NCBI GenBank assembly: GCA_035529075.1
Contig: DATKXK010000005.1
Location: 68,981 to 132,980 of the forward strand
Reading direction: 5' to 3'
From: Acidobacteriota bacterium
Lineage (GTDB): Bacteria; Zixibacteria; MSB-5A5; GN15; FEB-12
DNA: 64,000 nucleotides
In this document: positions 36,432-57,940 of the stretch, piece after piece
How positions within the stretch are numbered: position 1 is the first letter of the stretch
How the letters are laid out: each line of letters opens with the position of its first letter
Notes under the pieces: generated by a model
What the model was told of the DNA's origin: nothing
Seen by the model: the letters and a program-made list of their open reading frames with translations, nothing else
The model's database searches: none
Made by a program: the position numbers and the translations under genes

Positions 36432-36686
36432 TTACTTCAGCAGCACCATCTTCTTCGTCTGGACAAAATCTCCCGCCTCGAGCCGGTAAAGGTAGACGCC
36501 GCTGGCGACATGGCTCGCGTCCCACGCAACGGTGTGAACGCCCGCCTCGAGCCGTCCGTCGACAAGGGTCGCTACCTGCTGCCCGAGCGTGTTGTAGACC
36601 CGTAACCTGACCTCGCTCGCAACGGGAAGGCCGAACGAAACGTTGGTGGTCGGGTTGAACGGGTTGGGGTGGTTCTGTTCCAGCGC
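36432..36686 (-). other. T9SS-type (Por secretion) C-terminal sorting domain of the metalloprotease
   Basis: 84-aa tail ALEQNHPNPFNPTTNVSFGLP...VYNTLGQQVATLVDG...ASGVYLYRLEAGDFVQTKKMVLLK matches the canonical type A CTD pattern. Confidence 0.8.
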
Positions 36687-44149: not shown

Positions 44150-44315
44150 GATCGGCACTTTCGGGCCGGATGGTTGCAGAGATGTGCCGTGACAGGCCGG
44201 ACTTCGCCTGAGGACTTTCGGGTTCGCCGGGGGCGCATCAAGTGGAAGGCGGTGCACCGGGAGCCGCCGGCAGGCCTTCAAACTGCGGGGTCATCCTCTC
44301 GACAAACCCGTCGGA
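43988..44315. repeat. Direct repeat copy A (~325 bp): CHAT 3' end + spacer + diverged apbE 3' fragment
   Basis: 43988-44248 matches 47088-47348 with 2 mismatches (44021, 44143). 44249-44315 matches 47349-47415 at only ~80%. The offset is exactly 3100 bp. Confidence 0.92.
44238..44315 (-). pseudogene. Remnant of an apbE 3' end (last ~25 codons)
   Basis: Minus strand reads (S)DGFVERMTPQFEGLPAAPGAPPST*, compared with the intact apbE end PDGFVERMTPQFESLLAAPAVPSST*. There is no upstream coding continuation. Confidence 0.75.
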
Positions 44316-44559: not shown

Positions 44560-46860
44560 CTACGGAATTCTGCTGCCTTTCGCAGCAGGCGGCACAAGTG
44601 ATCGCCACGCCGGAAATTCGTCATGGGCGCTGTTGTTGGTCAACTTCCGCCGGTTAGTGCCGTCCACGTTCATTATGTAGATTTCCCCGTCGCCGTCCTG
44701 CCACGATGCAAATACGATCTGCTTGCCGTCGGCAGACCAATCCGGGCAGTTCTCGCCGGCATAAGTGGTCGACAGTTTCTGCAGGCCGCTGCCGTCGGCA
44801 TTGATGATATAGATCCCCCGGAAACCTGCATGATCGGAACCAAAGACAATACGGGTGCCATCCGGCGACCAGTCCGGTTCGAAGCAGACGATATCCATCA
44901 ACTTATGCTCATCGCTGCCATCGGCATCCATTATGAAGGTGCCTTCATTGTCGTTGATGCGGGAGAAGACAATCTGACTACCGTCTGGTGACCATGCGGG
45001 AAAATCCTCGGAGCTGGAAGGGGTATCGGTCAGACGCTGCAGATTGGAGCCGTCTGCATGAATGACATAAATCTCGCCCTGGCCGTCGCGCCATGATGCG
45101 AACACTATGTGCACGCCATCGGGCGACCACTGAGGCCAGAAATCCATAGCGGTATGGGATGTCAGTTGTTGCACGCTGCTGCCGTCGGCATTCATGACGT
45201 AGATATCGGGGTTCCCGCCTCGGGTCGACACGAAGGCAATCCGTGAACCGTCGGGCGACCAGCTCGGCCCGGCGTCGTAGGCCGGATCGTCCGTCAGACG
45301 GCGTACGTGGCTGCCGTCGATCTTCATGAGGTAGATGTCCCCTGCACCGTCCCGTTCTGACGTGAAGGCAATCGTTGAGTCAACTGCGACCGGGCACGGC
45401 GGCAGCGGCTCATAGGTGATAAACAGATACTTGATCATCCGCGTCAGGTCCGAGATATCGACCACGCCGTCGGGCTCTGCCTCCGGGCCGATGTCGGCCT
45501 CGGCCAGGCAACAGATCGGTTGGCGAGAGATGAACAGGAAATCAATGAGGTTGGTCAGATCGCTGACATCGACTGTCTGATCGCTGTATTCGCACTCGCC
45601 CAGTAGCATGACATTGCCTATCGTGCCCTCACAGCAGCAGGCATCGCCGACATTATCGCTGTCGCCGTCCTCCTGAAGCGGGTTGTATACGAAGGGGCAG
45701 TTGTCGACGTCGGCACACAGACCGTCCCCGTCGACGTCGTTGTACGGATCCAGCGGGCAGTCGTCGCAGTCGTTGCCGATCCCATCACCGTCTGTATCCA
45801 CCTGGGCCGGGTTGTAAAGTACAGAACAGTTGTCAACCGGGCACGTGTTCTCGGCGTGACCGGGATCGCCGTAACCGTCGAGATCACCATCCGTACAGGA
45901 TCCGACCACAAAACCCTCGTTGGCATCGCTGGCCCCGGCTCCCGTCTGATAGGCACCGGCCACTACGAAGATCGTGTCTCCGATGACTGCCGCGTTGGTT
46001 CCGTGGCGCGGCGTGAGCATGGGCGTCAGCGGCTCCCAGGTATCGGTGCCGGGATCATACAACTCTACTTCCTCGTAGATGTCCGGAATCTCCCCGCCAA
46101 ACGTATACAGCTTTCCGCCAAGGGCCGCCGTCGAAAACGCGCTGCGCGGCGTCAGCATGTCTGCCAGTGTGTACCAGGTATCGCTGGCCGGCGAGTATGC
46201 TTCAGTCACCGGGACCAGCTCGAGAGACTCTCCCCAGTAGCCGATTCTCCCGCCCACTACGTAGATCAGGGAATCGATTACCGCTACTCCCGGGTGGTGA
46301 CGGGCCGTAGGCATGCTCGTGCCCGGAGACCAGCTATCCATCTGCGGATCATACACCTCGACCGAAGCCAGATCATCACCGTAGGTGTTGTTGCCGCCGA
46401 ATACGTAGATAAGACCATCGTAGGCCACAGCGCTGTGTTCACCCCGAGCCGTGGCCAGGGGGGCTCGAGGCGCCCAGCTATCGGTCGATGGCTCATAAGC
46501 CCAGACGGTGCTCGTAGCGATCCACGGCAGGCCGGCATTGCTGTAGCCACCGATCGCGTAAAGTACCCCGTCCACCACGGCCGTGGCACAGTGATGGCGG
46601 GCCTCGGGCAGCAGGGCCGCTGTCGACCAGGTATTGGCGGCTGGATCATACACATAGACACTGCCACTCACGACCAGGCTGGGGGTATACCCGCCCACAA
46701 CGTAGATGCGCCCGTCGAGCACGGCCGGCAGAACCTCCTGTCTGGCTTCCGGCAGCTCAGGACGTTCGAACCAGTAACCGGGCCCCTGGCCATAGGCAAA
46801 CCCGGCTAAGACATTCAACGCTATCAGGATGACGAGACAGACACGGGAACGGCGTTTCAT
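44560..46860 (-). CDS. Secreted mosaic protein: 6 Kelch repeats + TSP3-type Ca-binding repeats + dockerin-like pair + TolB-like (PD40) beta-propeller
   Basis: Signal peptide MKRRSRVCLVILIALNVLAGFAYG (ATG at 46860 preferred over 46917). Six units of PxARxxxxxAVxDGxIYVxGG. DTDGDGIGNDCDDCPLDPYNDVDGDGLCADVDNCP. DVSDLTNLIDFLF / DISDLTRMIKYLF. Repeated IAFxSxRDGxxDIYVMNADGSxxxxLT. Confidence 0.85.
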   Translation of the reverse strand: MKRRSRVCLVILIALNVLAGFAYGQGPGYWFERPELPEARQEVLPAVLDGRIYVVGGYTPSLVVSGSVYVYDPAANTWSTAALLPEARHHCATAVVDGVLYAIGGYSNAGLPWIATSTVWAYEPSTDSWAPRAPLATARGEHSAVAYDGLIYVFGGNNTYGDDLASVEVYDPQMDSWSPGTSMPTARHHPGVAVIDSLIYVVGGRIGYWGESLELVPVTEAYSPASDTWYTLADMLTPRSAFSTAALGGKLYTFGGEIPDIYEEVELYDPGTDTWEPLTPMLTPRHGTNAAVIGDTIFVVAGAYQTGAGASDANEGFVVGSCTDGDLDGYGDPGHAENTCPVDNCSVLYNPAQVDTDGDGIGNDCDDCPLDPYNDVDGDGLCADVDNCPFVYNPLQEDGDSDNVGDACCCEGTIGNVMLLGECEYSDQTVDVSDLTNLIDFLFISRQPICCLAEADIGPEAEPDGVVDISDLTRMIKYLFITYEPLPPCPVAVDSTIAFTSERDGAGDIYLMKIDGSHVRRLTDDPAYDAGPSWSPDGSRIAFVSTRGGNPDIYVMNADGSSVQQLTSHTAMDFWPQWSPDGVHIVFASWRDGQGEIYVIHADGSNLQRLTDTPSSSEDFPAWSPDGSQIVFSRINDNEGTFIMDADGSDEHKLMDIVCFEPDWSPDGTRIVFGSDHAGFRGIYIINADGSGLQKLSTTYAGENCPDWSADGKQIVFASWQDGDGEIYIMNVDGTNRRKLTNNSAHDEFPAWRSLVPPAAKGSRIP

Positions 46861-47087
46861 GACAATATCTCTTGAGTTAAAGGTCAAACCAGACGACCTC
46901 GCAAAGGACGACGGCAAAACTGGTATTTAATAGACGAATACCAACCGACATTGTTCAGCTATTCCAGCTGCAGCGTGCCTGTCCTGTAACTGCCGCTGCC
47001 TGCCCTAAAATGCTCCTTTTAGCCTTACTCTCTTACGAGCAGGATGAACTTCCCGGGCCCTTCTCTGCGCCCATCAGTTACTGCACT

Positions 47088-47249
47088 GAATTGATGGACG
47101 GTTTCTACCGACGGTGGTGCAGCGGGGCATCAAAGCTGGATGCGCTCCGCGAGTCAGCTCTTGACGTCCTTAACCGGTCACGGACCGAACGAGGACGCAG
47201 TCATCCGTTGCTCTGGGGCGGATTTATCCTGGCCGGCAACCCATACTGA
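47088..47249 (+). pseudogene. Orphan copy of the last 53 codons of the TPR-CHAT gene
   Basis: ELMDGFYRRWCSGASKLDALRESALDVLNRSRTERGRSHPLLWGGFILAGNPY* differs at one residue from the end of 40841-44149. The track ORF 47010-47249 merely adds unrelated upstream codons. Confidence 0.8.
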
Positions 47250-47415
47250 GATCGGCACTTTCGGGCCGGATGGTTGCAGAGATGTGCCGTGACAGGCCGG
47301 ACTTCGCCTGAGGACTTTCGGGTTCGCCGGGGGCGCATCAAGTGGAAGACGGCACAGCCGGAGCCGCAAGCAGGCTTTCAAACTGCGGGGTCATCCTTTC
47401 GACAAAGCCGTCCGG
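47088..47415. repeat. Direct repeat copy B (~325 bp): truncated CHAT 3' end + spacer + genuine apbE 3' end
   Basis: See copy A. Identical block structure, shifted by 3100 bp. Confidence 0.92.
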
Positions 47416-48414
47416 AGTTCTCACAACGAGTAACGCCGCCAGACCTTTGCCGAGCGCCAGCGCATAGCCGTCCGCCGGGCCCAGGATATTGATCGCCGTC
47501 GCCATCGCATCGGCGTACCAGCAGGAATCATGGATCACCGTCACCGAGGCCAGGCGGTGCCTTATCGGCTGTCCTGTCCTGGGATCGATGAGGTGTGAAT
47601 AGCGGACGCCGCCTGTCTCGAAGTAGTTTCGATAGTCTCCGGACGTTGCCATGGCGCAATTGACAAGAGACGCGACTTTCTGCACACCCGAATCCCCGTC
47701 GGGAGTCTCTATGCCGATCTGCCACACCTGATCCCTGTCGTTGCGACCCCGCGCTTTCATCTCCCCGCCGATCTCGACGAGATAGTCGGACAGGCCTGCC
47801 GAGTCAAGGTACCGGGCGATTTCGTCAACGCCGTAGCCCTTGGCGATTGCCGCCAGATCACAGTAGACCCCCGCGTTGTCCTTTTTCAAGGCAGGCGGAT
47901 CCAGCCGGACGGCGATCCTGGCGTACCCGGTGCGCGCCATGGCCCGGGTGATTTCTTCGGGTGTCGGTAGCCTGCGATCGGTCGTCGGGGGACCGAATCC
48001 CCAGAGGTTCACCAGCGGGCCAACCGTAATATCAAACGTACCACCCGTTTCCCGACTTACCCCCAGAGACTGTTCGATGATGCGTGCCGTGGCGGCCGAC
48101 ACGAGGAACCAGTCGGTTTTCTTCCGGTAGTTGAACCGCGAAATCTCCGAACTCTTCAGGTAGCAGGACATCTGAGCGTTGACGGCCTGCAACAGGCTGT
48201 CGATGCCCCGCCTGGCCAGTTCGATCTGCTCATGCGCAAGGTCGGCTGCGTGGCTGATTTTGACACTGTATACGGTCCCCATGGTTTCGCCGCGGATGAC
48301 AACCGGTCCGGCAGGGGCCGGGTTGTCCGAGCAGCCGGCAAGAAGCCCGGCGGCAACCAGCCATCCGGTCAGCCGCCGCCGCGCCCGGTCGGGATTCATC
48401 GCTCTGAACTTCAT
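47338..48414 (-). CDS. apbE: FAD:protein FMN transferase (flavin transferase ApbE), lipoprotein
   Basis: Lipobox LLAGC. GTFDITVGPLVNLWGFG, DLAAIAKGYGVD, AMATSGDYRNYF, YSHLIDPRTGQP. Confidence 0.92.
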   Translation of the reverse strand: MKFRAMNPDRARRRLTGWLVAAGLLAGCSDNPAPAGPVVIRGETMGTVYSVKISHAADLAHEQIELARRGIDSLLQAVNAQMSCYLKSSEISRFNYRKKTDWFLVSAATARIIEQSLGVSRETGGTFDITVGPLVNLWGFGPPTTDRRLPTPEEITRAMARTGYARIAVRLDPPALKKDNAGVYCDLAAIAKGYGVDEIARYLDSAGLSDYLVEIGGEMKARGRNDRDQVWQIGIETPDGDSGVQKVASLVNCAMATSGDYRNYFETGGVRYSHLIDPRTGQPIRHRLASVTVIHDSCWYADAMATAINILGPADGYALALGKGLAALLVVRTPDGFVERMTPQFESLLAAPAVPSST

Positions 48415-48753: not shown

Positions 48754-49227
48754 ATGCCGGAGAAGAAGAAAGATCAAGCGGACAGTTGGGAGGGCATGTT
48801 CTGGAAACCGCACAAGTATAATGAGCGGATCAACCTGAAATCCGGTTCGTATCTCCGTACCTTCTGCCCTCGCTGCGACGAAGAACTGACTGAAGGTAAC
48901 GTGATCCGGCTTGAGGTGATTAACCTCAACGATGAATCGGGGTGGATTGAGCTGAGCACGTACCTGAACGTTTTTGAGCGGAAGACCGATATCAAGCTGC
49001 CTGAGGATCAAGAAGTCAAGGATCTCCGTTGCCGTCACTGTCACCGTTCATTGGTCGTGGAGGGCCGGCGCTGTGGAACCTGCAATTCCCACGCGGCCGG
49101 CATTGTGGTCGGCGTCTCCAACACCAAGGTGCCTTTCCTGATTTGCACGCGCATAGGTTGTCACTGGCACGCTATTCTGCCCGATGACGAAGACCAGATA
49201 ATTCTCGATGACAGCCGTGAATGGTAA
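48754..49227 (+). CDS. Cytoplasmic 8-Cys (double zinc-ribbon-like) protein of unknown function, first gene of the Rnf-type operon
   Basis: 157 aa with no signal peptide. Cys pairs CPRC, CRHC, CGTC, CTRIGC. Its stop lies 1 nt before the cytochrome start. Confidence 0.6.
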   Translation: MPEKKKDQADSWEGMFWKPHKYNERINLKSGSYLRTFCPRCDEELTEGNVIRLEVINLNDESGWIELSTYLNVFERKTDIKLPEDQEVKDLRCRHCHRSLVVEGRRCGTCNSHAAGIVVGVSNTKVPFLICTRIGCHWHAILPDDEDQIILDDSREW

Positions 49228-49228
49228 T

Positions 49229-49840
49229 ATGCAGGCGCACAGAAAACCCACTTTCCTGATAATTCTTACCGTCGTGGCCGCCGTTGCGGCCGTGGGCGGC
49301 TACTGGGTGGGAGAGGAATCCTCGGACACCAGCCGATTCTTCCTGAGTAGCTCCGGCGGCGACGTGGTGTTCGAGCACGGGGCGCATACGGAAATGGCCG
49401 CGGGGTGTGAAAGCTGCCACCATGATCTCCTGCTGGCCGATTCACGGCAGCCGTGCAGCACTTGTCACGGCGACGACGTTGCGGCGGAGGATTTCGATCA
49501 TGATGACCTCAAGACCATCTCGGCGCACAGTTGCGAGACATGCCACGAGGTCAACGACCAGGCCGAGGCAGGGTCATGTCGCAGTTGCCACCCGTCGGCT
49601 CAGGACGCGGAACCGCAAACGGTGGCCTGCGGGCAGTGCCACGACGGCTACTCGGCCGATTTGATGACCCACGACGAGATGCAGGAAATCGAGGGGCACG
49701 CGTGCGAAGGGTGCCACGTCATTGAGGCGGTCAGTACCGTGTACCACCGTCAGTGTGAGGGCTGTCACCTTGCCGAAAGCCCCGAGAAGTTTGCCACCGA
49801 AACCGGAGAAAGCCAGTGTCAATCGTGTCACCTGAGGTGA
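49229..49840 (+). CDS. Membrane-anchored/exported octahaem c-type cytochrome
   Basis: N-terminal MQAHRKPTFLIILTVVAAVAAVGGYWV. Eight CxxCH motifs in ~150 aa: CESCH, CSTCH, CETCH, CRSCH, CGQCH, CEGCH, CEGCH, CQSCH. ATG at 49229 is preferred to the track start at 49208, which overlaps the previous gene. Confidence 0.88.
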   Translation: MQAHRKPTFLIILTVVAAVAAVGGYWVGEESSDTSRFFLSSSGGDVVFEHGAHTEMAAGCESCHHDLLLADSRQPCSTCHGDDVAAEDFDHDDLKTISAHSCETCHEVNDQAEAGSCRSCHPSAQDAEPQTVACGQCHDGYSADLMTHDEMQEIEGHACEGCHVIEAVSTVYHRQCEGCHLAESPEKFATETGESQCQSCHLR

Positions 49841-49856: not shown

Positions 49857-51167
49857 TTGCCCATGAATTCCATACGGACACTTTTCAGGACCCTTGGCCA
49901 CATCGGGGATTGCGCCTCACATGAGGAGAAGATTTCCGCAATCGCCGACCCGCCGTACGTCTGCATCCCGCTGGAGTATCCGGGCCAGATCCTGTACAAG
50001 CCCCTGGTGCAGGCGGGTGATACGGTGCGCAGGAACCAGATCATCGGCCGGTCCGGGCAGGGTAATTGTGTCCACGCGTCGGTAAGCGGAACAGTGAAGG
50101 AGATCAGGCCCGTCTGGACTGCGCGAAGCTACAACGTGCCCTCGGTCGTGATTGAGCGAAACGGCGGCGCCCCGCTGTCGGTGGGCGAAGTCTTTGAGCA
50201 GTACGGCGTGCGGTTTGCCTCGGCGTCCCGGATACAGAAAATGAAGGCCCTGGGGGTTGTCTCGCCGTGGACTCTGCCGGGCAAGTTCCACCGTGAAGAG
50301 GAGGTGGAGGAGTTCCCCGAGGTCAGACAGATCATTATCAAGGGAAAAAACGAAGAACCCAGTATTTTCACGTTCGAACTGCTGCTTGAGCAGGAATCTG
50401 AGAAAGTGACTCGGGGGATTCAGCAACTGACCAGCATCGCCCCCAATGCTCTGATCTGGCTGACCGTGCCGAGGCGCCTGGCTGCCTGGGCGCGTGAGAC
50501 TTTCGGCGACTCCGTCAAAGTTGCGCCCCTTGGGGACGGTTACAAGGACCGTCTGGAGCGGCTGCTTGTCCCGCGCCTGACCGGGATCACGATAGCCAAC
50601 ACCGCCCCGTACCGGCAGGAAGGGATTGCCGTCATATCGGTCGAGTACCTCCTGGCCATGGTCGACGCGCTTGAAGGCCGCAGCCCGTTCACGCACAAGC
50701 ACCTGACTGTCGCCGGGCATAACGTCTCCAGACCCGTTACGGTCAAGTTCCCTATAGGCACACCCATCCGAACACTCCTGGAGAGCCAGCAGCTTCACGA
50801 CAAGTCGTTCGCACGCCTGCTGGTCGGGGGGCCGATGAAGGGAATCGCGCAGTTTAGTGACGAAACTCCCCTCACCAAGTCCTGTCACGGTCTTTACGTG
50901 ATATCAGCGGATCAATTGCCGCTGGAGGTGAACCTTACGTGCATAAACTGCGGCCGGTGTACGCGGGCGTGCCCGCTTAACCTGCAGGTGCACCTGATCG
51001 GCCGCTACGTCGAATATAACCTGCTGCTTGAGGCCAGGGGATTTCACCCGGAAGCCTGCAATGAGTGCGGGTTGTGCGCCTATGTCTGTCCGGCTCACAG
51101 GCCGCTGGTACAACTTATCACTATGTGTAATCAGTACGATGAGCACGCCGATGGTCAGAACGTATGA
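49857..51167 (+). CDS. rnfC: RnfC-like subunit retaining two [4Fe-4S] motifs but lacking the Gly-rich NADH/FMN-binding motifs
   Basis: RnfC_N pattern (VCIPLEYPGQILYKPLVQAGDTVRRNQIIG..VHASVSGTVKEI), LLVGGPMKG, CINCGRCTRACP and CNECGLCAYVCP. Where RsxC/RnfC has G(L/V)GGAGFPT and INxAECEPY, this protein has VVSPWTLPGKF and IKGKNEEPS. Confidence 0.82.
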   Translation: MPMNSIRTLFRTLGHIGDCASHEEKISAIADPPYVCIPLEYPGQILYKPLVQAGDTVRRNQIIGRSGQGNCVHASVSGTVKEIRPVWTARSYNVPSVVIERNGGAPLSVGEVFEQYGVRFASASRIQKMKALGVVSPWTLPGKFHREEEVEEFPEVRQIIIKGKNEEPSIFTFELLLEQESEKVTRGIQQLTSIAPNALIWLTVPRRLAAWARETFGDSVKVAPLGDGYKDRLERLLVPRLTGITIANTAPYRQEGIAVISVEYLLAMVDALEGRSPFTHKHLTVAGHNVSRPVTVKFPIGTPIRTLLESQQLHDKSFARLLVGGPMKGIAQFSDETPLTKSCHGLYVISADQLPLEVNLTCINCGRCTRACPLNLQVHLIGRYVEYNLLLEARGFHPEACNECGLCAYVCPAHRPLVQLITMCNQYDEHADGQNV

Positions 51168-52125
51168 GAAACTGAACGTAGCTTCCAGCCCTCACTGGCG
51201 GGATGGAAGCGCCCTGGATTTGACTTACAAGCTGTGGCTGCTGGCCCTGGCGCCGGCCATGATCGTGAGCCTGCTGATGTTCGGTTGGCAGGCGTTACGG
51301 GTTCTCGGCCTGGCCGTGGCCTGTTCCGTATTCCTGGATGCGCTCGTCAACCGGATAAAGCCCTCCAAGGACTTTACGACCAATTGGAGCAGCGTTACGT
51401 TCGGCGTGATCCTCGCCCTGATGATGCCGTATGACGCCGCCTGGTGGCTGATTCTGGTGGGTTGCCTGATCATGATTGTGGTGGGCAAAAAGCTTTTCGG
51501 CGGCGTGGGAGCGTACCCCGTGCACCCGGTCCTGCTCAGTCTGGCCATGCTGCATGTATCCTGGCCGCACCGCTTCGACTTCACCGCTTCCATGGTTTCA
51601 CTGGATCTCGGTGTCAAGATGGTCGAGCCGATGCGTCTCGTCAAAACGCTGGGCGCGGGCGCCGAGGCTGCATATCGCTGGCAGGATCTCCTGCTGGGCA
51701 AACAGGTGGCCGGCATCGGTAGCGGGCTCGTCCTGTACCTGCTTATAGGCGGCCTGCTCCTGATTCTTTTCCGCCAGATTCCGTGGCACATCCCGGTCGC
51801 CTTTATTGTCGGTAACCTGGTGATGGGGGAGGTTCTGCACCTGGCGGATCCGGTTCAGTTCGCCACACCGCTCTTCTACCTTCTGTCCGGCGGCACTGTT
51901 TTCGCCGCTTTTTTCCTGGCGACGGAGTACACGACTTCGCCCGTGAACCCGGTTCCGATGTTGTTATACGGGTTCCTGGGTGGGGCTTTGCTGATAGTAA
52001 TTCGCGCGTTTTCGAACTACACTGACGGCGTGGTGTTTACGATCCTGCTGATCAACCTGTGCAATCCGCTTCTCGATCGCATCACGCCCAGGGTATACGG
52101 CATAGAGGCGGCTCAGCATGCGTGA
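51139..52125 (+). CDS. rnfD: RnfD/NqrB-family membrane subunit (divergent at the FMN-attachment site)
   Basis: VASSPHW near the N-terminus, KKLFGGVGAYPVHPVLLSLAML, YLLSGGTVFAAFFLATE, NYTDGVVFTILLINLCNPLLD. ATG at 51139 is chosen; the track start at 51028 lies deep inside rnfC. Confidence 0.86.
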   Translation: MSTPMVRTYEKLNVASSPHWRDGSALDLTYKLWLLALAPAMIVSLLMFGWQALRVLGLAVACSVFLDALVNRIKPSKDFTTNWSSVTFGVILALMMPYDAAWWLILVGCLIMIVVGKKLFGGVGAYPVHPVLLSLAMLHVSWPHRFDFTASMVSLDLGVKMVEPMRLVKTLGAGAEAAYRWQDLLLGKQVAGIGSGLVLYLLIGGLLLILFRQIPWHIPVAFIVGNLVMGEVLHLADPVQFATPLFYLLSGGTVFAAFFLATEYTTSPVNPVPMLLYGFLGGALLIVIRAFSNYTDGVVFTILLINLCNPLLDRITPRVYGIEAAQHA

Positions 52126-52717
52126 AGTAATCAGGCTAGTCGTGGTGCTCACCGTCATCTGCGGTGTCTCGGCGGGTGCTCTGACGCTTGTGCGGCAGTC
52201 ACTGGGTTCTCGCATTGAGCAGCAGAGCGATTTTTATGTTCGCGGCCCGGCGCTGGAGCGCCTGTTCGGCCAACCATCGGCGGAGCTGCTTGACAAGAAG
52301 GTCAGCTTTACCTCCGACGGGCGCACGTATCCGGTTTTTTATACGCGTGACGGCGAGCAGATCACAGGGCTGGCCGTCGAGGCACCCGGCCCGGGAGGGT
52401 ACGGCGGCGATGTCGTCGTCATGATTGGTGTGGACCTGCGTGCCGGGCAGATGGTAGGTATGGAGATAATCCAGCATAATGAGACGCCCGGCGTCGGCTC
52501 GCAGGTGGAAAGGCCGGCCTTCCGCAAACAGTGGAGCGGCCTGTCCGTCTCCGAGCCCGTGCAGCTGACTGCGCAAGGGGGCAAGATTGACGCCATCAGC
52601 GGTGCCACGTACTCATCGAAGGCGGTGATCAACGGAACGAACGCCATTGTCGAATTGCTGGGCCGTCACCGTGACGAGATTATGGCTTCAATACGGACGA
52701 AAGAGGGTCAATCGTAG
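52118..52717 (+). CDS. rnfG: RnfG subunit (periplasmic FMN_bind domain)
   Basis: N-terminal anchor VVVLTVICGVSAGAL. HNETPGVG. Flavinylation motif DAISGATYSSKAV (SGAT at 52598-52609). Confidence 0.9.
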   Translation: MREVIRLVVVLTVICGVSAGALTLVRQSLGSRIEQQSDFYVRGPALERLFGQPSAELLDKKVSFTSDGRTYPVFYTRDGEQITGLAVEAPGPGGYGGDVVVMIGVDLRAGQMVGMEIIQHNETPGVGSQVERPAFRKQWSGLSVSEPVQLTAQGGKIDAISGATYSSKAVINGTNAIVELLGRHRDEIMASIRTKEGQS

Positions 52718-52746: not shown

Positions 52747-53358
52747 ATGAGTTTACGGAAGGTACTGTTTCACGGGTTCTGGAAAGACCTGCCGCCGTTT
52801 CGTCTGGTCCTGGGTCTGTGCCCGTCTCTGGCCGTGACTTCATCGGCCGAGAACGGTCTGGGTATGGGACTGGCGGCGACGTTCGTGCTCGTCTTTTCCA
52901 ATCTGTTTATCTCCGTGCTGCGCAAAATGATCCCGGACAAGGTACGCATTGCCAGTTACATCGTGGTTATCGCCACCCTGACTGTTCTCGTGGAGATGGC
53001 GATGAAGGCGTACTTCTTCCCGCTTTCGCAGCAGTTGGGAATTTACATTCCCCTGATCGTCGTTAACTGCATTATTCTCGGCCGGGCGGAAGCGTACGCC
53101 TCGAAGAACCCGCCTCACCTCTCGATTGTTGATGGCATCAGCATCGGGTTGGGTTTCACGATTTCGCTGACGGTGGTCGGATCGATCCGTGAGATTCTGG
53201 GTGCCGGGCAGTGGTTTGGCACGTACGTTCTCTGGGACAGCTACGAGCCGTTTGAGTTCATGATCAAGGCCCCGGGTGCCTTTATCTGCCTGGGCGTGCT
53301 GTTGGGTCTGATGAACGCATACAGCCGCATGCGCGGTGAAACCTTCATACAGTCGTAG
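52747..53358 (+). CDS. rnfE: RnfE subunit
   Basis: LVLGLCPSLAVT, GLGMGLAATFVL, LGIYIPLIVVNCIILGRAEAYA. Confidence 0.9.
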   Translation: MSLRKVLFHGFWKDLPPFRLVLGLCPSLAVTSSAENGLGMGLAATFVLVFSNLFISVLRKMIPDKVRIASYIVVIATLTVLVEMAMKAYFFPLSQQLGIYIPLIVVNCIILGRAEAYASKNPPHLSIVDGISIGLGFTISLTVVGSIREILGAGQWFGTYVLWDSYEPFEFMIKAPGAFICLGVLLGLMNAYSRMRGETFIQS

Positions 53359-53367
53359 GAGGTACTG

Positions 53368-53943
53368 ATGGACCTGTTGTTGCTCGCGATCAGTGCGATC
53401 TTTGTGAACAATATCCTCCTGGCCCAGTACCTCGGCAACTGCCCCTTCTGCGGCGTCTCCAAGAAGCTGAACACGTCCATCGGGATGGGGGTGGCGGTGA
53501 TCTTTGTGGTGGCGCTGGCCTCGGTGTTCACGTGGCTGGTTTACTACTACGTTTTGAAACCGTACGATATGGAGTTCATCCAAACCCTCGTCTTCATTCT
53601 GATTATCGCGTCGCTCGTTCAGTTTGTGGAGATCTTTCTTAAGAAGCAGAGTAAGGCGCTGTACAACGCGTTGGGGATCTACCTGCCGCTGATCACGACG
53701 AACTGCGCCGTCATGGGCATCGCACTGCTTAATATCAAGCACGAATTCAACTTCATCGAGATGGTGATATTCTCAGTTGCCAGTTCCGCAGGTTTTGCCC
53801 TGGCGATCATACTGTTCGCCGGGCTGCGGGAGCGGCTGCTGGTCTCACCGGTCCCTCGGGCCATGCAGGGGACAGCCGTGGCGCTTCTGACGGCCGGTAT
53901 CATGTCGCTGGCGTTCTTGGGCTTTTACGGTATGGTTCAGTGA
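53368..53943 (+). CDS. rnfA: RnfA subunit
   Basis: NNILLAQYLGNCPFCGVS, LGIYLPLITTNCAVMG, GFALAIILFAGLRERL. Confidence 0.9.
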   Translation: MDLLLLAISAIFVNNILLAQYLGNCPFCGVSKKLNTSIGMGVAVIFVVALASVFTWLVYYYVLKPYDMEFIQTLVFILIIASLVQFVEIFLKKQSKALYNALGIYLPLITTNCAVMGIALLNIKHEFNFIEMVIFSVASSAGFALAIILFAGLRERLLVSPVPRAMQGTAVALLTAGIMSLAFLGFYGMVQ

Positions 53944-53958
53944 GATAGAAAGTAGGGT

Positions 53959-56058
53959 ATGGGCATGCTGGAGTCAGTTGTACTCCTTGCGGGAATTGGA
54001 TTTGTAGCGGCGATTGGTCTGGGCATTGCCGGGATAATCTTCTACGTCAAGGAAGATCCTCGCATAAAGGGCGTTCAGAACATCCTCCCCGGCGCCAACT
54101 GCGGAGGTTGCGGGTTTGCGGGTTGCGCGGCTTGCGCCGAGGCCATTGTCAGGGGGGAAGCTGAGGCAAACGCCTGCGTCGTGGGCCAGACGGAGGTCGC
54201 CACGGAAGTCGCGGATTATCTTGGTCTGTCTCCGGTCGACTCGGAACCGCAGGTGGCCAATCCCGACTGCCAGGGCGGGCTCCGCGCCTCCAGAAAGTAC
54301 GACTACCTGGGCTTCGACGACTGCCGGGCCGCCATGTTGTACTACCACGGGCCGGTGGCGTGTGAGCATGGCTGCATGGGCTTCGGAACCTGCATCAAGG
54401 CGTGCAAGTTCAACGCCATTATGATGGGCGAGAACAACCTGCCACGGTTCAATCCGGAACTGTGCGTGGGCTGCGGCCAGTGCGTGGCGGCCTGCCCCAA
54501 GGGCATCATCTCACTCATCTCCGCCAAGGCCAAGATCCTGCACTGGAATCAGTACACCGAGTGCCTGTCTCCCTGCCGACAGAAGTGCCCGGCTCAGGTC
54601 AACATCCCGAAGTATATCCAGCATATCAGACGCGGTGAATACGCTCAGGCCCTGCTGACAATCAAGGAAAGCAACCCTATGCCGTTAAGCATCGGGCGGG
54701 TCTGCCCCGAACCGTGCGCCCTGGCCTGCCGGCGTACCATCAATGACGAACCCGTGGCTATCAACTACCTCAAGCGGTTTGTCGCCGACTGGGAGATGCA
54801 CTCCGGCCGTCGTCTCCGCATTCCCGTGGCGGCCGGCACGGGCAAGAAGGTGGCCGTGATCGGGGGCGGCCCGGGCGGTCTCTCGGCCGCGTTCTATCTC
54901 AAGCGCCTCGGCCATGAGGTGACAATCTTCGAAAAAAAGCCCCAACTCGGAGGCATGTTGCGTTACGGCATTCCCGAGTACCGGCTGCCCAAGAAGATTC
55001 TCGACTGGGAGATCGAAGGTATCCTCCAGTTGGGAATCACCGCCACTGCCAACGTGGAGTTCGGCAAGGACTTCACGATTGATTTCCTGCGCGCCGAGGG
55101 GTATGACGCCGTTTTCATCGCGGTCGGGGCCTGGAACGAGTCTGAACTGAAGGTCGAGGGCCGCGATCTGAAGGGTGTGGTCGGCGGCATCGGGTTTCTC
55201 GAGCGGTTCCACACCGGTGAAGAGGTTGAGATCGGCAATCACGTGGTTGTGATAGGCGGTGGCAATACGGCTATTGACGCTGCGCGCAGTTCCCTGCGGC
55301 TGGGTGCACAGACCGTCACCATCGTGTATCGCCGGTCGAGGGACGAAATGCCCGCCAATCCTGCCGAGATCATTGCCGCTGAAGAAGAGAACATTCAGTT
55401 CCAGTTCCTGAGTGCTCCCAACCGTGTGCTTGGTGAGGACGGCCGGGTAGCGGGCCTGGAAGTCCTGAAAATGCGCCTGGGCGAGCCCGATCCCAGCGGC
55501 CGGCGAAGGCCCGTCCCGATTGAGGGGTCAGAAGAAGTTGTCCAGTGCGATATGATCGTCGAGGCCGTCGGCCAGTACCCGGATCTGGACTGCCTCAAGC
55601 AAGCGGGATCGCCCAGTCTCCAGGTCACCAAGTGGAACACGATTGACGCGCAGGAAGCGACCCTGCAGACGGACGTTCCCTACATCTTTACCGGCGGTGA
55701 CTGCTTCACCGGTCCGGGTCTCGTGGTGGAGGCCATAGGCGCCGGGCGCTATGCCGCGCGTTCCATCCACTACTACATGATGGATGACGAGATTCGGCCG
55801 ATTCGGGATCGTCAGCGCGAGATCATTCCGGACTCGCTGCACAAGTCAATTATCGGTGTTGCAGCCTTGCCCCGCGTCCATGAACCGATAGTCACACTTG
55901 AAGACCGGCTGGGAACATTCAAGGAGGTGGAGGGGACCATCGACGAGGAGGATGCCCGGTACGAAGCCACGCGGTGCCTGAACTGCGGCATCTTTTGTTA
56001 CGATCACGACCAGGAGGTCGAGCGACTGGCCCAACTGGAGGCGGCCGAAACGACTTAG
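53959..56058 (+). CDS. rnfB: RnfB fused to a GltD-like (glutamate synthase small-subunit-type) NAD(P)H/FAD oxidoreductase module
   Basis: Residues 1-190 are the TM anchor, LPGANCGGCGFAGCAACAEAI (RnfB-type cluster), CEHGCMGFGTCIKAC and CVGCGQCVAACP. Residues ~195-640 carry SPCRQKCPAQVNIPKYI...GRVCPEPCALACRR, KKVAVIGGGPGGLSAAFYL..EKKPQLGGMLRYGIPEYRLPK, VVVIGGGNTAIDAARS and IFTGGDC. 699 aa, against ~190-330 aa for ordinary RnfB. Confidence 0.88.
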   Translation: MGMLESVVLLAGIGFVAAIGLGIAGIIFYVKEDPRIKGVQNILPGANCGGCGFAGCAACAEAIVRGEAEANACVVGQTEVATEVADYLGLSPVDSEPQVANPDCQGGLRASRKYDYLGFDDCRAAMLYYHGPVACEHGCMGFGTCIKACKFNAIMMGENNLPRFNPELCVGCGQCVAACPKGIISLISAKAKILHWNQYTECLSPCRQKCPAQVNIPKYIQHIRRGEYAQALLTIKESNPMPLSIGRVCPEPCALACRRTINDEPVAINYLKRFVADWEMHSGRRLRIPVAAGTGKKVAVIGGGPGGLSAAFYLKRLGHEVTIFEKKPQLGGMLRYGIPEYRLPKKILDWEIEGILQLGITATANVEFGKDFTIDFLRAEGYDAVFIAVGAWNESELKVEGRDLKGVVGGIGFLERFHTGEEVEIGNHVVVIGGGNTAIDAARSSLRLGAQTVTIVYRRSRDEMPANPAEIIAAEEENIQFQFLSAPNRVLGEDGRVAGLEVLKMRLGEPDPSGRRRPVPIEGSEEVVQCDMIVEAVGQYPDLDCLKQAGSPSLQVTKWNTIDAQEATLQTDVPYIFTGGDCFTGPGLVVEAIGAGRYAARSIHYYMMDDEIRPIRDRQREIIPDSLHKSIIGVAALPRVHEPIVTLEDRLGTFKEVEGTIDEEDARYEATRCLNCGIFCYDHDQEVERLAQLEAAETT

Positions 56059-56099
56059 CGGTGCGACCGGCTCCCCGCCTGACCTGATTTCACTGACGG

Positions 56100-56133
56100 C
56101 GGCCGGTCCTTTCGGGCTGGCCGTTTGTGTGTT
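56100..56133 (+). terminator. Intrinsic terminator closing the Rnf-type operon
   Basis: cggccggtcc-tttc-gggctggccg (10-bp stem including 2 G-U pairs) followed by TTTGTGTGTT, 42 nt after the rnfB stop. Confidence 0.6.
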
Positions 56134-56149
56134 ATATCTCCCAAAATAG

Positions 56150-56164
56150 TTGCCAAAGTGGCAA
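56150..56164. promoter_or_regulatory. Perfect palindrome TTGCCA-aag-TGGCAA upstream of the SDR gene (possible operator)
   Basis: 6+3+6 inverted repeat, 82 nt upstream of the ATG at 56246. No binding protein can be assigned. Confidence 0.3.
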
Positions 56165-56245
56165 ACAATCGCCCATTATAAGGCGGTGCCGGCGCGCGAC
56201 TGACCGTCAGGCAGCCAGTCGCTTGAACATCAGCCGGATCGAAAT

Positions 56246-57940
56246 ATGGATACGAATCTACCCGGGATCATAGTTACGGGCGCGTCCGGTTTCATCGGGC
56301 GGCACTTTCTGGAGGCGGTGGCCGGTAAATTCCGTCTCTTCTGCCTGGCGCGCCGTTCGCAAAAGGAAGCGGGTATTCCCAGGGATGACAACATCCGCTG
56401 GACCCAGGTCGACATCGCCAAATGGGACACTCTCAGAGAGGTCGTGCAATGCGTGAAGACCAACGGGGGTGCGGATTTCGTCCTGCACCTGGCCGGCTAC
56501 TATGACTTCAGCAACGCCGACAACCCGGAATACGAACGGACCAACGTCAACGGCACGCGCAACGTCCTGAAGCTGGCAAAACAGATCGGCACGCGCCGTT
56601 TCATCTTCGCCAGTTCCCTGGCGGCCTGTACGTTTCCGCGTGACGGCGGGGTGGTCAACGAAGAGAGTGCGCCAGACGCCACTTTTCCGTATGCGTCCAG
56701 CAAACGGCTGGGCGAAGAGATGATGCAGGAGTACTCCGAGTGGTTTCCGTGCACGACCGTCCGTTTGGCCGCAATCTACAGCGACTGGTGCGAGTATCCT
56801 CCGGTATACGTGTTTCTCGGTACCTGGCTGTCCGGCCGCTGGAATTCGCGCATCCTCGGCGGCCGGGGAATGTCCGCCGTGACGTATCTTCACATCCAGG
56901 ACCTGATCAGGTTCTTTCTAAAGATAATCGACCAGACCGATCGCTTGCCGCGGATGTGCACCCTGGTGGCAAGCCCGAACGGATTCACGACTCATCACGA
57001 GCTTTTCAAAACGGCCACGCGGTATTTCTACGGCCGGGACATCCGGCCGATTCGCATGCCTAAGGTCCTGGCCACGCCGGGCATGGTCTTGCGCCATGCC
57101 ATAGGGAAGCTCTTCGGCAGGCCGCCGTTCGAGCGCCTGTGGATGGTGGCGTACATTGACAAGAAACTGAACGTCGACGCCTCAGGAACGCACGCCGACC
57201 TCGGCTGGCAGCCGACCGCCCGGCACGGCATTCTCCGGCGCCTGCTGTTCCTGATGGAAAACATGAAGAATCACCCCGACGGCTGGCATTTGCGGAACGA
57301 AGCCGTGCTGCGGCGGGTGACCGAGCGGCCGAATCTCACCATTTACGAACTGCTTATCGAGTCCCGCGAGGCGCTCATTGATGAAATGCTCAAGTTCATC
57401 CTGGCCCCCGCCAACGCCGGGCGGCTCAACCGCTACCAGAGGATGGATAAGGACCTGCTCAAGTGGTACGTCACCCTCGTGTACCAGCTGGTGGCTACGG
57501 TCGTGCGAACCCGCGACCGGACGCTGATGCGCAATTACGCCGAGGTCATAGCGTATCGCCGGTTCGTGGAAGGATTCGAGGTTCGCGAGGTTTGTGACTT
57601 TCTCATGTCTATAGGTGACATGATGCGTGAGGCACTGGAGCCACGGTCCGAGCTCAGGGACATGCCGCAACGGGTGTACGACCACATCACCATGACTTTC
57701 CAATTGGCGGTGGACGAGATCGAGGACTCTTACGAGTTCCTGGCTGCCCAGACACCTGAATACCTGCAGCGGCTCAGGGAAGTGCCGTTACCGACACACA
57801 GCGGCGATCTCGAGCGCATTGTCCATCAACTGGAGGACATCTGCCAGGACATGTTCGAGGACCGGCTGAGCACGGAGGCCCGCAAGCTCCGGGGCGCGCC
57901 CCTCTCCCGCAGTGACACCCCGCATTATCATGATCTGTAG
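56246..57940 (+). CDS. NAD-dependent epimerase/dehydratase (extended SDR) fused to a ~230-aa helical C-terminal domain of unknown function
   Basis: IIVTGASGFIGRHF (GxxGxxG), YASSK (YxxxK). Residues ~330-564 are helical and not SDR-like. Confidence 0.8.
   Translation: MDTNLPGIIVTGASGFIGRHFLEAVAGKFRLFCLARRSQKEAGIPRDDNIRWTQVDIAKWDTLREVVQCVKTNGGADFVLHLAGYYDFSNADNPEYERTNVNGTRNVLKLAKQIGTRRFIFASSLAACTFPRDGGVVNEESAPDATFPYASSKRLGEEMMQEYSEWFPCTTVRLAAIYSDWCEYPPVYVFLGTWLSGRWNSRILGGRGMSAVTYLHIQDLIRFFLKIIDQTDRLPRMCTLVASPNGFTTHHELFKTATRYFYGRDIRPIRMPKVLATPGMVLRHAIGKLFGRPPFERLWMVAYIDKKLNVDASGTHADLGWQPTARHGILRRLLFLMENMKNHPDGWHLRNEAVLRRVTERPNLTIYELLIESREALIDEMLKFILAPANAGRLNRYQRMDKDLLKWYVTLVYQLVATVVRTRDRTLMRNYAEVIAYRRFVEGFEVREVCDFLMSIGDMMREALEPRSELRDMPQRVYDHITMTFQLAVDEIEDSYEFLAAQTPEYLQRLREVPLPTHSGDLERIVHQLEDICQDMFEDRLSTEARKLRGAPLSRSDTPHYHDL

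Follow-up and report, generated by a model that had tools for sequence, protein, structure and literature searches.

We found that the open reading frame at 49857–51167 of a 64,000-nt stretch of contig DATKXK010000005.1 (the whole stretch analysed, hereafter the window) encodes an RnfC-like subunit, here called RnfC*. To judge from its sequence and predicted structure, RnfC* has lost the signatures of the FMN/NAD(H) pocket and has kept the RnfC fold and both [4Fe-4S] motifs. The complex encoded in the window is a new member of the Rnf2 type, from a subclade that is probably sister to the Desulfobacteraceae type and turns up here in a different bacterial lineage. With moderate confidence, and on the strength of sequence comparison and structural models, we assign RnfC*, as subunit C, to an Rnf complex of the Rnf2 type ('Desulfobacula toluolica Tol2-type') that would work as a route from NADPH through RnfB to a cytochrome. 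The features on which this reading draws are as follows.

47338–48414, − strand: ApbE flavin transferase (PF02424, E 8e-86), divergently oriented
48754–49227, + strand: 157-aa cytoplasmic Cys-rich protein, first gene of the cluster, with a 20-nt overlap with the cytochrome gene
49208–49840, + strand: eight-haem c-type cytochrome (c3/c7-like), membrane-anchored or secreted, with 8 CxxCH and an N-terminal hydrophobic helix
49857–51167, + strand: RnfC-like subunit (RnfC*), RnfC fold and two [4Fe-4S] motifs kept, FMN/NAD(H) motifs replaced
50253–50291, + strand: GVVSPWTLPGKFH, in place of the FMN-phosphate loop G-I-V-G-[ML]-G-G-A-x-F-P-T-H, with a clade-invariant W138
50337–50363, + strand: IKGKNEEPS, in place of V-N-[AG]-[AS]-E-C-E-P-Y; the second Glu (E167 of RnfC*) is the only residue kept
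50538–50573, + strand: GYKDRLERLLVP, in place of K-Y-P-Q-G-A-E-K-Q-L-I; an invariant Gly has become an invariant Arg (R232)
50940–51092, + strand: ferredoxin domain with two CxxCxxCxxxCP motifs, eight Cys invariant in 68 clade sequences
51139–52125, + strand: RnfD, start at 51139 or 51151 (the mechanical ORF begins at 51028)
52118–52717, + strand: RnfG, flavinylation motif SGAT intact (52598–52609)
52747–53358, + strand: RnfE
53368–53943, + strand: RnfA
53959–54555, + strand: RnfB proper, with membrane anchor, PF04060 Fe-S domain and 2x[4Fe-4S] ferredoxin domain
54556–56058, + strand: NfnA/StnC/NfnB/GltD-like module fused to RnfB, with Fer4_20, FAD and NADPH motifs and a Cys tail
56098–56125, + strand: terminator-like hairpin (12 pairs, 8 of them G-C) just past rnfB
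56246–57940, + strand: SDR/epimerase-like protein of 564 aa with a C-terminal extension of ~230 aa, syntenic with this Rnf type in FCB-type loci

Motifs and fold of RnfC*

The start of RnfC* is probably the ATG at 49863, since the identical database protein (P0001) is 434 aa long. The protein matches the solved RnfC subunits 7zc6_C, 9eri_C and 8ahx_C at E-values from 3e-37 to 3e-28 in phmmer, and we placed its motifs by phmmer against these structures and by MAFFT alignment. Both methods set VVSPWTLPGKF (residues 134–144, 50256–50288) opposite G-[ML]-G-G-A-x-F-P-T, and IKGKNEEPS (residues 161–169, 50337–50363) opposite VNAAECEPY, the same placement that a first-pass annotation had proposed by eye for the conserved Gly loop and the INAAECEPY-type motif. 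A third motif is swapped, with K-Y-P-Q-G-A-E-K turned into G-Y-K-D-R-L-E-R (50538–50573); in brief, GxGGAxFP has given way to SPWTLPGKF, ECEPY to NEEPS and YPQGAEK to YKDRLER. The same alignment was searched for a Gly motif that had shifted and stayed intact, and none was found: the sole GG of the region (ERNGGAPL, residues 99–106) is not conserved in the clade.

Three canonical RnfC traits are retained, namely the RnfC_N barrel (PF13375, 51.8 bits), the two CxxCxxCxxxCP motifs (CINCGRCTRACP at 50940–50975 and CNECGLCAYVCP at 51057–51092) and the location in an rnfCDGEAB operon. VGGPMKG is intact at 50823–50843, and the first-pass annotation had rightly listed barrel, GGPMxG segment and both Cys motifs as preserved. 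Profile HMMs also bear out its view of the missing signatures. Complex1_51K (PF01512) gave no Pfam match in RnfC* at E ≤ 0.01, and two control RnfCs score 184–195 bits with this model. SLBB (PF10531) reaches 21.7 bits against a cutoff of 27, over 26 residues only, in a part whose fold is predicted confidently. RnfC* scores below the cutoffs of the rnfC models TIGR01945 (189.1 bits against 245.95), NF003454 (168.8 against 345) and rnfC_Methano NF041837 (137.5 bits against 650, the better of two stretches being residues 226–426). NqrA family models fall far below their cutoffs, and the subunits of the operon score best as Rnf, not Nqr.

To describe conservation we counted a column as conserved when it reached at least 90% among 69 canonical RnfCs. 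The window's clade keeps 35 of 82 such columns (43%), nearly all of them in the barrel, the GGPM loop and the ferredoxin domain. Residues G138, G140, G141, F144, P145, K149, N164, E167, C168, D175, E207, P237, G239 and N268 (A. woodii numbering) are invariant in 69/69 canonical sequences, and none is kept in the clade. Likewise, N-x-x-E-C-E-P-Y and Y-P-Q-G-x-E-K are invariant in all 69 canonical RnfCs and read KGKNEEPS and YKDRLER in the window. What occupies the former pocket is a strongly conserved, clade-wide set of replacements (SPWT..PGR.H, NEEP and Y..RIER), and the replacement motifs are common to more than 390 RnfC* homologues at 42–69% identity. Across 68 clade sequences W138, R232, Y252 and E167 of RnfC* are invariant along with the eight Cys. 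The AF2 model of RnfC* (pLDDT 92, pTM 0.91) keeps the RnfC fold, with Foldseek TM scores of 0.80 to solved RnfC and 0.65 to NqrA. Given the replacement motifs shared by so many homologues, the invariant Cys and the preserved fold, RnfC* is under purifying selection and not in decay. The former FMN pocket would be filled by Trp and Arg side chains, and the invariance of the eight Cys and of W138, R232, Y252 and E167 argues for a role beyond that of a scaffold.

The operon and its relatives

RnfB (53959–56058, 699 aa) ends in an NfnA/GltD-like FAD and NADPH module. Its core aligns with 9eri_B over residues 5–192 (E 1.8e-50). The module consists of a Fer4_20 domain with 2 clusters, a GxGxxG-type FAD site (VAVIGGGPGG, 54850–54891), a GxGxxA-type NADPH site (VVVIGGGNTAIDAARS...YRRSRDEMPA, 55243–55356) and a tail that contains Cys (CLNCGIFC). 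In the PDB the module matches 9bov_A best (E 1.6e-133), with further matches to 9n5u_A, 8oh5_C, 4ylf_B and 2vdc_G; PRK12771 scores 523 bits on RnfB, over its cutoff, and Pyr_redox_2 matched too. By these motifs both the FAD and the NADPH site appear complete. The first-pass annotation had held that the NAD+/NADH function looks lost here. This stands for RnfC* itself, as far as its pocket signatures go, but loss of pyridine-nucleotide coupling from the complex is unsupported because RnfB, encoded in the same operon, carries a complete NfnA/GltD-like fusion module. The annotation had overlooked this fusion, the co-varying cytochrome gene, the RnfD change described below and the earlier descriptions of this Rnf type. 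The fusion of an NADPH-binding module to RnfB, together with the addition of a multihaem cytochrome, would be the reason why RnfC lost an NADH/flavin pocket of its own.

The remaining subunits have changed to different degrees. The clade keeps 94% of canonical-conserved columns in RnfA, 82% in RnfE, 81% in the RnfB core and 80% in RnfG, against 50% in RnfD and the 43% of RnfC; at the sequence level the first four match ordinary Rnf in their conservation. In RnfD, for which the A. woodii reference positions are T156, N123 and D249 (PMC11889175), the Thr that carries covalent FMN has become Glu (51625–51627, VKMVEPMRL against TTATPLALL) and the riboflavin ligand Asn has become His (YPVHPV, 51514–51531). 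All 61 canonical loci have T or S at position T156, and the 17 motif-less loci have E (13), Y (2), D (1) or A (1) there. The riboflavin position D249 is still D/E, so RnfD may hold a flavin non-covalently. Haem b or another new cofactor in place of the RnfD flavins was considered and set aside, as a clade-specific His (N123 to H) and one Cys are too little to go on.

Upstream of rnfC lies the cytochrome gene, whose product matches Pfam Cytochrom_CIII (E 4e-10) and whose end is 17–23 nt from the rnfC start, by the start codon chosen. The 157-aa protein encoded before it has two metal-binding sites, one Cys4 and one Cys3His, and its C-terminal D..EW is invariant. By blastp, a homologue lies upstream of the cytochrome in 12 loci of the main subclade (L001–L011 and L015), and none was found in L013, L017 or L047. 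The family counts 24 homologues, and those with names are all 'hypothetical'. Its AF2 model has a pLDDT of 70, and Foldseek against the PDB gave no match better than E ~1. A rubredoxin-like partner of RnfC* was considered for this protein and is not relied on, there being only weak zinc-ribbon-like Pfam matches and no PDB fold match. ApbE is presumably the flavinylase for RnfG. At the other end, the hairpin is a probable end of the operon, and the SDR-like gene is probably a separate transcription unit. Among ten larger window ORFs outside the rnf region we found no informative partner of the Qrc, Dsr or outer-membrane conduit kind; the ORFs scanned include peptidases, a T9SS-tailed protein and a GlcD/HdrD-like fusion.

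We examined co-occurrence in 83 loci, counting motif-less loci only where the contig also holds rnfB. The GltD fusion and a directly upstream cytochrome (4–10 haems) accompany motif-less RnfC in 15/15 such loci; the fusion occurs in 0/57 canonical loci with rnfB, and no canonical RnfC among the 83 loci is found with a fused RnfB and an adjacent cytochrome. A cytochrome of 4–10 haems precedes every motif-less RnfC where the contig spans the region. Hosts of the window's subclade are Zixibacteria-like, Calditrichota, Krumholzibacteria, Marinimicrobia, Fibrobacterota, Desulfocapsaceae and Geopsychrobacteraceae genomes. In a neighbour-joining tree of 85 RnfCs, made without D. toluolica, bootstrap, maximum likelihood or an outgroup, the motif-less sequences all fall on one side of the midpoint root.

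Electron route and alternatives

In the route that we favour, a pyridine nucleotide, probably NADPH, would enter at RnfB, and electrons would pass from FAD along the RnfB Fe-S chain to the [2Fe-2S] of RnfA/E, on to the FMN of RnfG and out to the periplasmic multihaem cytochrome, with reversible coupling to Na+/H+ translocation. The old return branch, from the RnfD flavins through RnfC to NAD+, would serve as an exit no more. RnfC* would have been retained because it clamps RnfD and RnfB, and its Fe-S clusters may be structural or may serve some cytoplasmic partner. Haem potentials of the c3 type can lie close to that of NADPH, so it is uncertain how large the driving force is and which way the electrons flow.

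A less likely alternative is that RnfC* is still an active redox port. The remodelled pocket (W138, R232, Y252, E167) would then bind a new ligand or cofactor or dock a partner, for which the co-encoded 157-aa Cys-rich protein is one candidate, and the complex would have three ports (NADPH, cytochrome c and a further partner X), with electrons entering or leaving it at its cytoplasmic face via the two [4Fe-4S] clusters. The invariance of the eight Cys and of the new pocket-region residues across 68 sequences is consistent with such a port, and an acceptor or donor other than NAD+/NADH must exist for the Rnf2 RnfC according to the literature (PMC5109826). The 157-aa protein, moreover, goes with this Rnf subclade in every locus that spans the region. 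However, it is absent from the Desulfobacteraceae subclade, and its Pfam, AF2 and Foldseek results give no sign of a redox protein. RnfD, too, lacks the covalent-FMN Thr and has a changed riboflavin ligand, which takes away the path by which electrons are known to get from RnfG to the clusters of RnfC.

We regard Nfn-like bifurcation as improbable. Here NADPH would be oxidized at the GltD-type FAD, with one electron crossing the membrane to reach the cytochrome and its partner passing to ferredoxin via clusters of RnfB or RnfC*. In favour of this, the module on RnfB is a homologue of NfnB (4ylf_B, E 4e-91; 5jca_L), which carries a bifurcating FAD, and the contact between RnfC and RnfB is firm in solved Rnf complexes. 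Yet the closest solved relatives (9bov_A, 9n5u_A and 8oh5_C) are NADPH-input modules of NfnABC and StnABC, in which, as far as we know, bifurcation does not take place at the GltD-like part, and in canonical Rnf the RnfB and RnfC clusters are 25 Å to more than 30 Å apart.

More improbable still is an ordinary ferredoxin:NAD+ Rnf whose RnfC binds FMN and NADH by a shifted or divergent motif. The fold is retained, GGPMKG, E167 and Y229 are kept, and some relatives have weak Complex1_51K remnants of 16–20 bits, but 14 residues invariant in 69/69 canonical sequences are replaced, among them all phosphate-loop glycines, with one Gly turned into Trp and another into Arg. No alternative Gly-rich motif is conserved in the clade, and the scores are below the curated cutoffs. 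A decaying pseudogene or assembly artefact, for which the missing motifs alone would speak, can be dismissed, as the ORF is intact, more than 390 homologues from several phyla share the replacement motifs and the synteny, the identical protein occurs on contigs of up to 289 kb, and, according to PMC5109826 and the PMC11887813 supplement, proteomics on cultured Desulfobacteraceae has picked up Rnf2 subunits.

Relation to known complexes and significance

PMC5109826 and PMC11887813 already describe the architecture for Desulfobacteraceae, under the names "Desulfobacula toluolica Tol2-type" and "Rnf2", and PMC5109826 traces the Tol2-type Rnf to Woehlbrand 2013. These papers place Rnf2 in the core genome of the family, report it as constitutively abundant in the proteomes of six strains and propose cytochrome c3 reduction as its role; in the published proposal, ferredoxin is kept as a donor to RnfB. 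They call the other subunits 'very similar' and, in the parts that treat the complex, do not mention the change in RnfD (PMC5109826; PMC11887813 supplement), although by our own observation the covalent-FMN Thr is missing from both the window's subclade and Desulfobacteraceae Rnf2. The Rnf reviews and structural papers that we consulted do not mention the Rnf2 type, which is described in the Desulfococcus multivorans genome paper (PMC5109826); a 2025 RNF/NQR review has neither the GltD fusion nor sulfate reducers.

The window shares with Rnf2 an RnfB of ~700 aa with a C-terminal pyridine-nucleotide-disulfide oxidoreductase/NAD(P)-binding domain (699 aa here), an RnfC with two [4Fe-4S] motifs and without Complex1_51K and SLBB signatures, and a c3-type cytochrome gene inside the rnf cluster. 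The window and L047 share the order cyt-rnfCDGEAB, whereas L017 has rnfB upstream of the cytochrome and rnfC. The window's RnfC is only 28–30% identical to the Desulfobacteraceae-type RnfCs (L017, L047 and L055). Unlike that type, the window's subclade keeps RnfC_N and GGPM.G, has motifs of its own (SPWT, NEEP, RIER) and has the extra conserved 157-aa Cys-rich gene and, in FCB-type genomes, the syntenic SDR-like gene. The downstream route published for Desulfobacteraceae Rnf2 (Qrc to menaquinone to Qmo) is peculiar to sulfate reducers and may not hold for the window.

With canonical RnfC (A. woodii 9ERI, C. tetanomorphum 7ZC6, A. vinelandii 8AHX), RnfC* shares the fold (TM 0.80), the barrel, the C-terminal 2x[4Fe-4S] and the rnfCDGEAB position, but identity is 22–25%, the score is below the TIGR01945 cutoff and the residues of the pocket for non-covalent FMN and NAD(H) are all replaced. 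NqrA of Na+-NQR follows the same evolutionary logic, being a homologue whose NADH/FMN function was lost once the NADH site had moved, there to NqrF and here to RnfB::GltD. NqrA, however, has lost both Fe-S clusters as well, whereas RnfC* has all 8 Cys, and its TM score to RnfC* is only 0.65. In Na+-NQR, moreover, NqrB keeps covalent FMN and riboflavin and reduces quinone, and its input module, NqrF, is of the FNR kind and has no relation to GltD. The Rnf of M. acetivorans resembles the window in having a multihaem cytochrome c (MmcA) co-transcribed with rnfCDGEAB; it does not use NAD(P), its RnfC has been given an 'alternate function', and electrons are proposed to exit from RnfG to the cytochrome (PMC4023990). 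It differs in that its donor is ferredoxin and its RnfB is without a GltD fusion.

Anaerobes have in Rnf and Nqr central machines of energy coupling, and recent structures and reviews treat RnfC as the NAD+ site, a rule that the Rnf2 type breaks. Known for Desulfobacteraceae, the Rnf2 architecture is newly found here in Zixibacteria-like, Calditrichota, Krumholzibacteria, Marinimicrobia and Desulfocapsaceae genomes, and metabolic reconstructions that call such operons "ferredoxin:NAD+ oxidoreductase" are probably wrong on both substrates. More tentatively, the sequences raise the possibility that the whole Rnf2 type, its return branch stripped of flavins and its input half and RnfG intact, constitutes, next to Rnf and Nqr, a third class: an NADPH:cytochrome c oxidoreductase that translocates ions, needs no quinone, has its end point in the periplasm and is widespread in sediment bacteria of several phyla. 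If NADPH is indeed linked directly to periplasmic cytochromes with ion pumping, these complexes would be a previously uncharacterised respiratory entry point in sediment bacteria, and, as a natural experiment, they would tell on which half of the electron path in Rnf/Nqr ion translocation depends.

The RnfC-like protein and its gene cluster

Nine + strand genes of the window form the cluster that encodes the RnfC-like protein; they are listed here with the flanking features. The 434-aa length of the identical database protein points to ATG 49863 as the probable start of the RnfC ORF. Three neighbourhood look-ups recovered the same gene set, at Calditrichaceae, Krumholzibacteria and one further MAG locus.

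Genes and sites of the rnf cluster
47338-48414, divergent from the cluster: ApbE flavin transferase
48754-49227, +: 157-aa Cys-rich protein
49208-49840, +: eight-haem c-type cytochrome, hydrophobic helix at the N-terminus
49857-51167, +: RnfC-like protein
51139-52125, +: RnfD
52118-52717, +: RnfG
52747-53358, +: RnfE
53368-53943, +: RnfA
53959-56058, +: RnfB, 699 aa
56098-56125: terminator-like hairpin between rnfB and the SDR-like gene
56150-56179: promoter-like site between rnfB and the SDR-like gene
56246-57940, +: SDR/epimerase-like protein, 3' of the hairpin

A phmmer search of all PDB chains matched the window RnfC over nearly its full length to the solved RnfC chains 7zc6_C, 9eri_C and 8ahx_C (E 3e-37 to 3e-28). 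Both these alignments and a MAFFT alignment with 21 relatives placed the same three replacements opposite canonical motifs: GVVSPWTLPGKFH (50253-50291) opposite GIVG[ML]GGAxFPTH, IKGKNEEPS (50337-50363) opposite VN[AG][AS]ECEPY, and GYKDRLER (from 50538) opposite KYPQGAEK. Pfam detected no Complex1_51K domain and only a sub-threshold fragment of SLBB, and TIGR01945 scored 189 bits against a cutoff of 246; two ordinary RnfC controls gave 184-195 bits for Complex1_51K and 36-56 bits for SLBB. The protein still has the PF13375 barrel domain, GGPMKG and the two CxxCxxCxxxCP motifs, as the first-pass annotation had described. The alignment of 85 RnfC included 69 canonical sequences (those with the FMN/NAD(H) motifs), among which 82 columns reach a conservation of 90% or more. 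The window's clade keeps 35 of these columns, nearly all belonging to the barrel, the ferredoxin domain or the GGPM loop. In the NuoF-like domain, 14 positions that do not vary among the canonical RnfC (69/69) are all replaced in the clade, and alignment against canonical RnfC revealed no shifted glycine-rich motif. The observation of the first-pass annotation that the FMN/NADH glycine motifs are missing, coordinates included, is therefore correct.

The protein is not decaying: its fold is retained and a new set of residues is under selection. Searching with it returned 394 proteins at E <= 1e-10 (42-100% identical among the 120 listed), most without Complex1_51K annotation. W138, R232, E167 and all eight cluster cysteines are invariant in 68 homologues, and Y252 is conserved in 12/12 locus-derived clade sequences. 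An AlphaFold2 model built from the 68-homologue alignment (mean pLDDT 92, pTM 0.91) best matched solved RnfC (TM 0.80), followed by NqrA (TM 0.65) and the NuoF/HydB family.

RnfB, RnfD and a proposed electron path

Residues 1-195 of the window RnfB form an ordinary RnfB, with membrane anchor, PF04060 Fe-S domain and 2x[4Fe-4S] domain (9eri_B, E 1.8e-50). For residues 199-683 the matches are to NADPH-input modules, those of NfnABC/StnABC (9bov_A, E 1.6e-133; 9n5u_A; 8oh5_C), as well as to NfnB (4ylf_B, 5jca_L) and GltD (2vdc_G); this stretch exceeds the curated cutoff of PRK12771. In this fused module the FAD motif, VAVIGGGPGG, is intact, and there is an NADPH motif, VVVIGGGNTAIDAARS...YRRSRDEMPA, whose YRR we read as NADPH-specific, as is established for GltD-type enzymes. 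The first-pass account of a lost NADH site, sound as to the feature itself, was only partial as an interpretation, having missed this module.

We compared 83 loci by scripted analysis (80 from a scan with one genome per species, plus the three look-ups), of which 17 encode an RnfC that lacks both GxGGxxFP and ECEP; the loci are best tblastn matches only and not independent events. Fifteen of these 17 motif-less loci contain rnfB, in every case (15/15) with the GltD fusion and with a cytochrome of 4-10 haems encoded just upstream; the remaining two loci are on truncated contigs. The fusion occurs in 0/57 of the canonical loci that contain rnfB (57/66). No multihaem cytochrome gene adjoins rnfC in any of the 66 canonical loci, and in two one lies 7-9 kb away. 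Published operons of Desulfovibrio and Methanosarcina combine a cytochrome with a short RnfB (PMC4023990, PMC11887813). The genus Desulforhopalus supplies both a canonical rnf locus (L082; RnfC motifs intact, RnfB short) and one of Rnf2 type (L010), in line with the literature, in which both types are reported for some sulfate reducers.

RnfD has changed as well. In A. woodii, its FMN is covalently bound at T156 and riboflavin is held by N123 and D249 (PMC11889175).

RnfD residues at A. woodii flavin positions
T156: 61 canonical loci, T 60, S 1; 17 motif-less loci, E 13, D 1, Y 2, A 1
N123: canonical, N 61; motif-less, H 10, Q 2, N 4, C 1
D249: canonical, D 61; motif-less, E 9, D 8

The window's VKMVEPMRL (51613-51639) lies opposite A. 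woodii TTATPLALL, with Glu at 51625-51627, and in the window's clade a Trp takes the place of the Asp in the flavinylation motif D-x-x-T-x-A-T. The covalent-FMN threonine is lost in the window and in loci L001-L013, L017, L047 and L055; neither this loss nor the change of the riboflavin ligand N123 (to His or Gln in 12 of the 17) is mentioned in the Rnf2 papers that we read. The clade keeps 94% of canonical-conserved columns in RnfA, 82% in RnfE, 81% in the RnfB core and 80% in RnfG, 50% in RnfD and 43% in RnfC, and the RnfG flavinylation site [ST]GA[TS] is kept in all loci. The known Rnf electron path is U-shaped, and judging from this asymmetry and the kept RnfG site, its input half is conserved and its return half remodelled.

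Cofactor-binding motifs are intact in RnfB::GltD, RnfA/E and RnfG but not at the flavin sites of RnfC and RnfD, and a periplasm-facing multihaem cytochrome is co-encoded. In the most likely scheme, the fused module would accept hydride from NADPH at its FAD, and electrons would run through that module's two clusters, the RnfB clusters and the [2Fe-2S] of RnfA/E to the FMN of RnfG and leave by the cytochrome; ions would be translocated as they are by Rnf and Nqr. We give this NADPH-to-cytochrome mechanism an even chance of being right. Flow might be reversible, because c3-type haems can have potentials as low as that of NADPH. The scheme resembles Nqr, where a new input subunit has likewise taken over the NADH site and NqrA, homologous to RnfC, has become cofactor-free, and also the model for M. 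acetivorans, which has RnfG reducing a cytochrome (PMC4023990). It does not account for the retention of both RnfC clusters or for the new invariant residues in the old pocket. RnfC may be a scaffold whose clusters are structural, or it may be a port for some cytoplasmic partner.

Accessory genes and surroundings

In the locus comparison, the 157-aa gene was confined to the window's subclade and in each case sat immediately 5' of the cytochrome gene. Its product has no Pfam family or PDB fold match and only 24 database homologues, none informatively named; the family has an invariant Cys4 site (C38, C41, C93, C96), a Cys3His site (C107, C131, C136, H139) and an invariant C-terminal D..EW. The SDR-like gene is restricted to FCB-type members of the subclade, being syntenic in Calditrichota, Krumholzibacteria and Fibrobacterota loci (50-60% identity); blastp found no match in Desulfocapsaceae, Geopsychrobacteraceae, uncultured deltaproteobacterium and Neomarinimicrobiota loci (L007-L011, L015) or in Desulfobacteraceae-type loci. 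Its 564-aa product joins an N-terminal NAD-dependent epimerase/SDR half to a C-terminal extension of ~230 aa.

Elsewhere in the window, a 958-aa protein (36432-39308, -) carries a T9SS C-terminal sorting domain, which fits an FCB-group host. At NCBI the identical RnfC (P0001) carries the label 'Acidobacteriota bacterium', while named proteins among its closest relatives are labelled Zixibacteria; the source MAG may be mislabelled. In a 300-nt direct repeat (43988-44287 and 47088-47387; 97% identity, 3100 nt apart), the 3' end of a TPR/CHAT-domain gene (40841-44149) is duplicated together with its downstream sequence. The repeat copies flank a beta-propeller-repeat gene (44560-46917, -); the second copy creates a 79-aa ORF (47010-47249) and itself overlaps the apbE 3' end. 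Within the flanked gene, a 42-nt unit occurs six times (44641-45336, spacing ~132 nt), mirroring ~44-aa tandem repeats (PD40/TolB-like) of the protein. A 1041-aa protein (20146-23271, -) fuses FAD_binding_4, a 4Fe-4S dicluster domain and two CCG (HdrD-like) domains, and resembles a dehydrogenase of GlcD/HdrD type.

Relation to Rnf2

The complex is very probably of the Rnf2 type, with a lost RnfC flavin site. The Tol2-type RnfB was described as ~700 aa with NAD+-binding sites (PMC5109826). A 2025 study named the type Rnf2, placed it in the Desulfobacteraceae core genome, found it constitutively abundant in six strains and associated with cytochrome c3, and called its other subunits very similar; it proposed that oxidation of ferredoxin, perhaps also NADH, reduces the cytochrome and in turn Qrc and menaquinone (PMC11887813). 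Neither the main review of Rnf/Nqr nor the structural papers mention this type. The window RnfC is 40-54% identical to its relatives in the locus set and up to 69% to database homologues among the matches listed, the relatives coming from Zixibacteria, Calditrichota, Krumholzibacteria, Fibrobacterota, Marinimicrobia, Desulfocapsaceae and Geopsychrobacteraceae genomes. Canonical RnfC are at most 31% identical to it. The Desulfobacteraceae-type RnfC (L017, L047, L055) are 28-30% identical and more degenerate, with GGPM lost and RnfC_N below threshold. All motif-less RnfC fall on one side of the midpoint root of a neighbour-joining tree, which is consistent with, but not proof of, a single origin. 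The RnfC feature as first described is already in the literature; this analysis adds a further Rnf2 member, belonging to a sister subclade not described before, together with the strict co-occurrence of motif-less RnfC, fused RnfB and cytochrome and the finding that RnfD has lost its flavinylation site.
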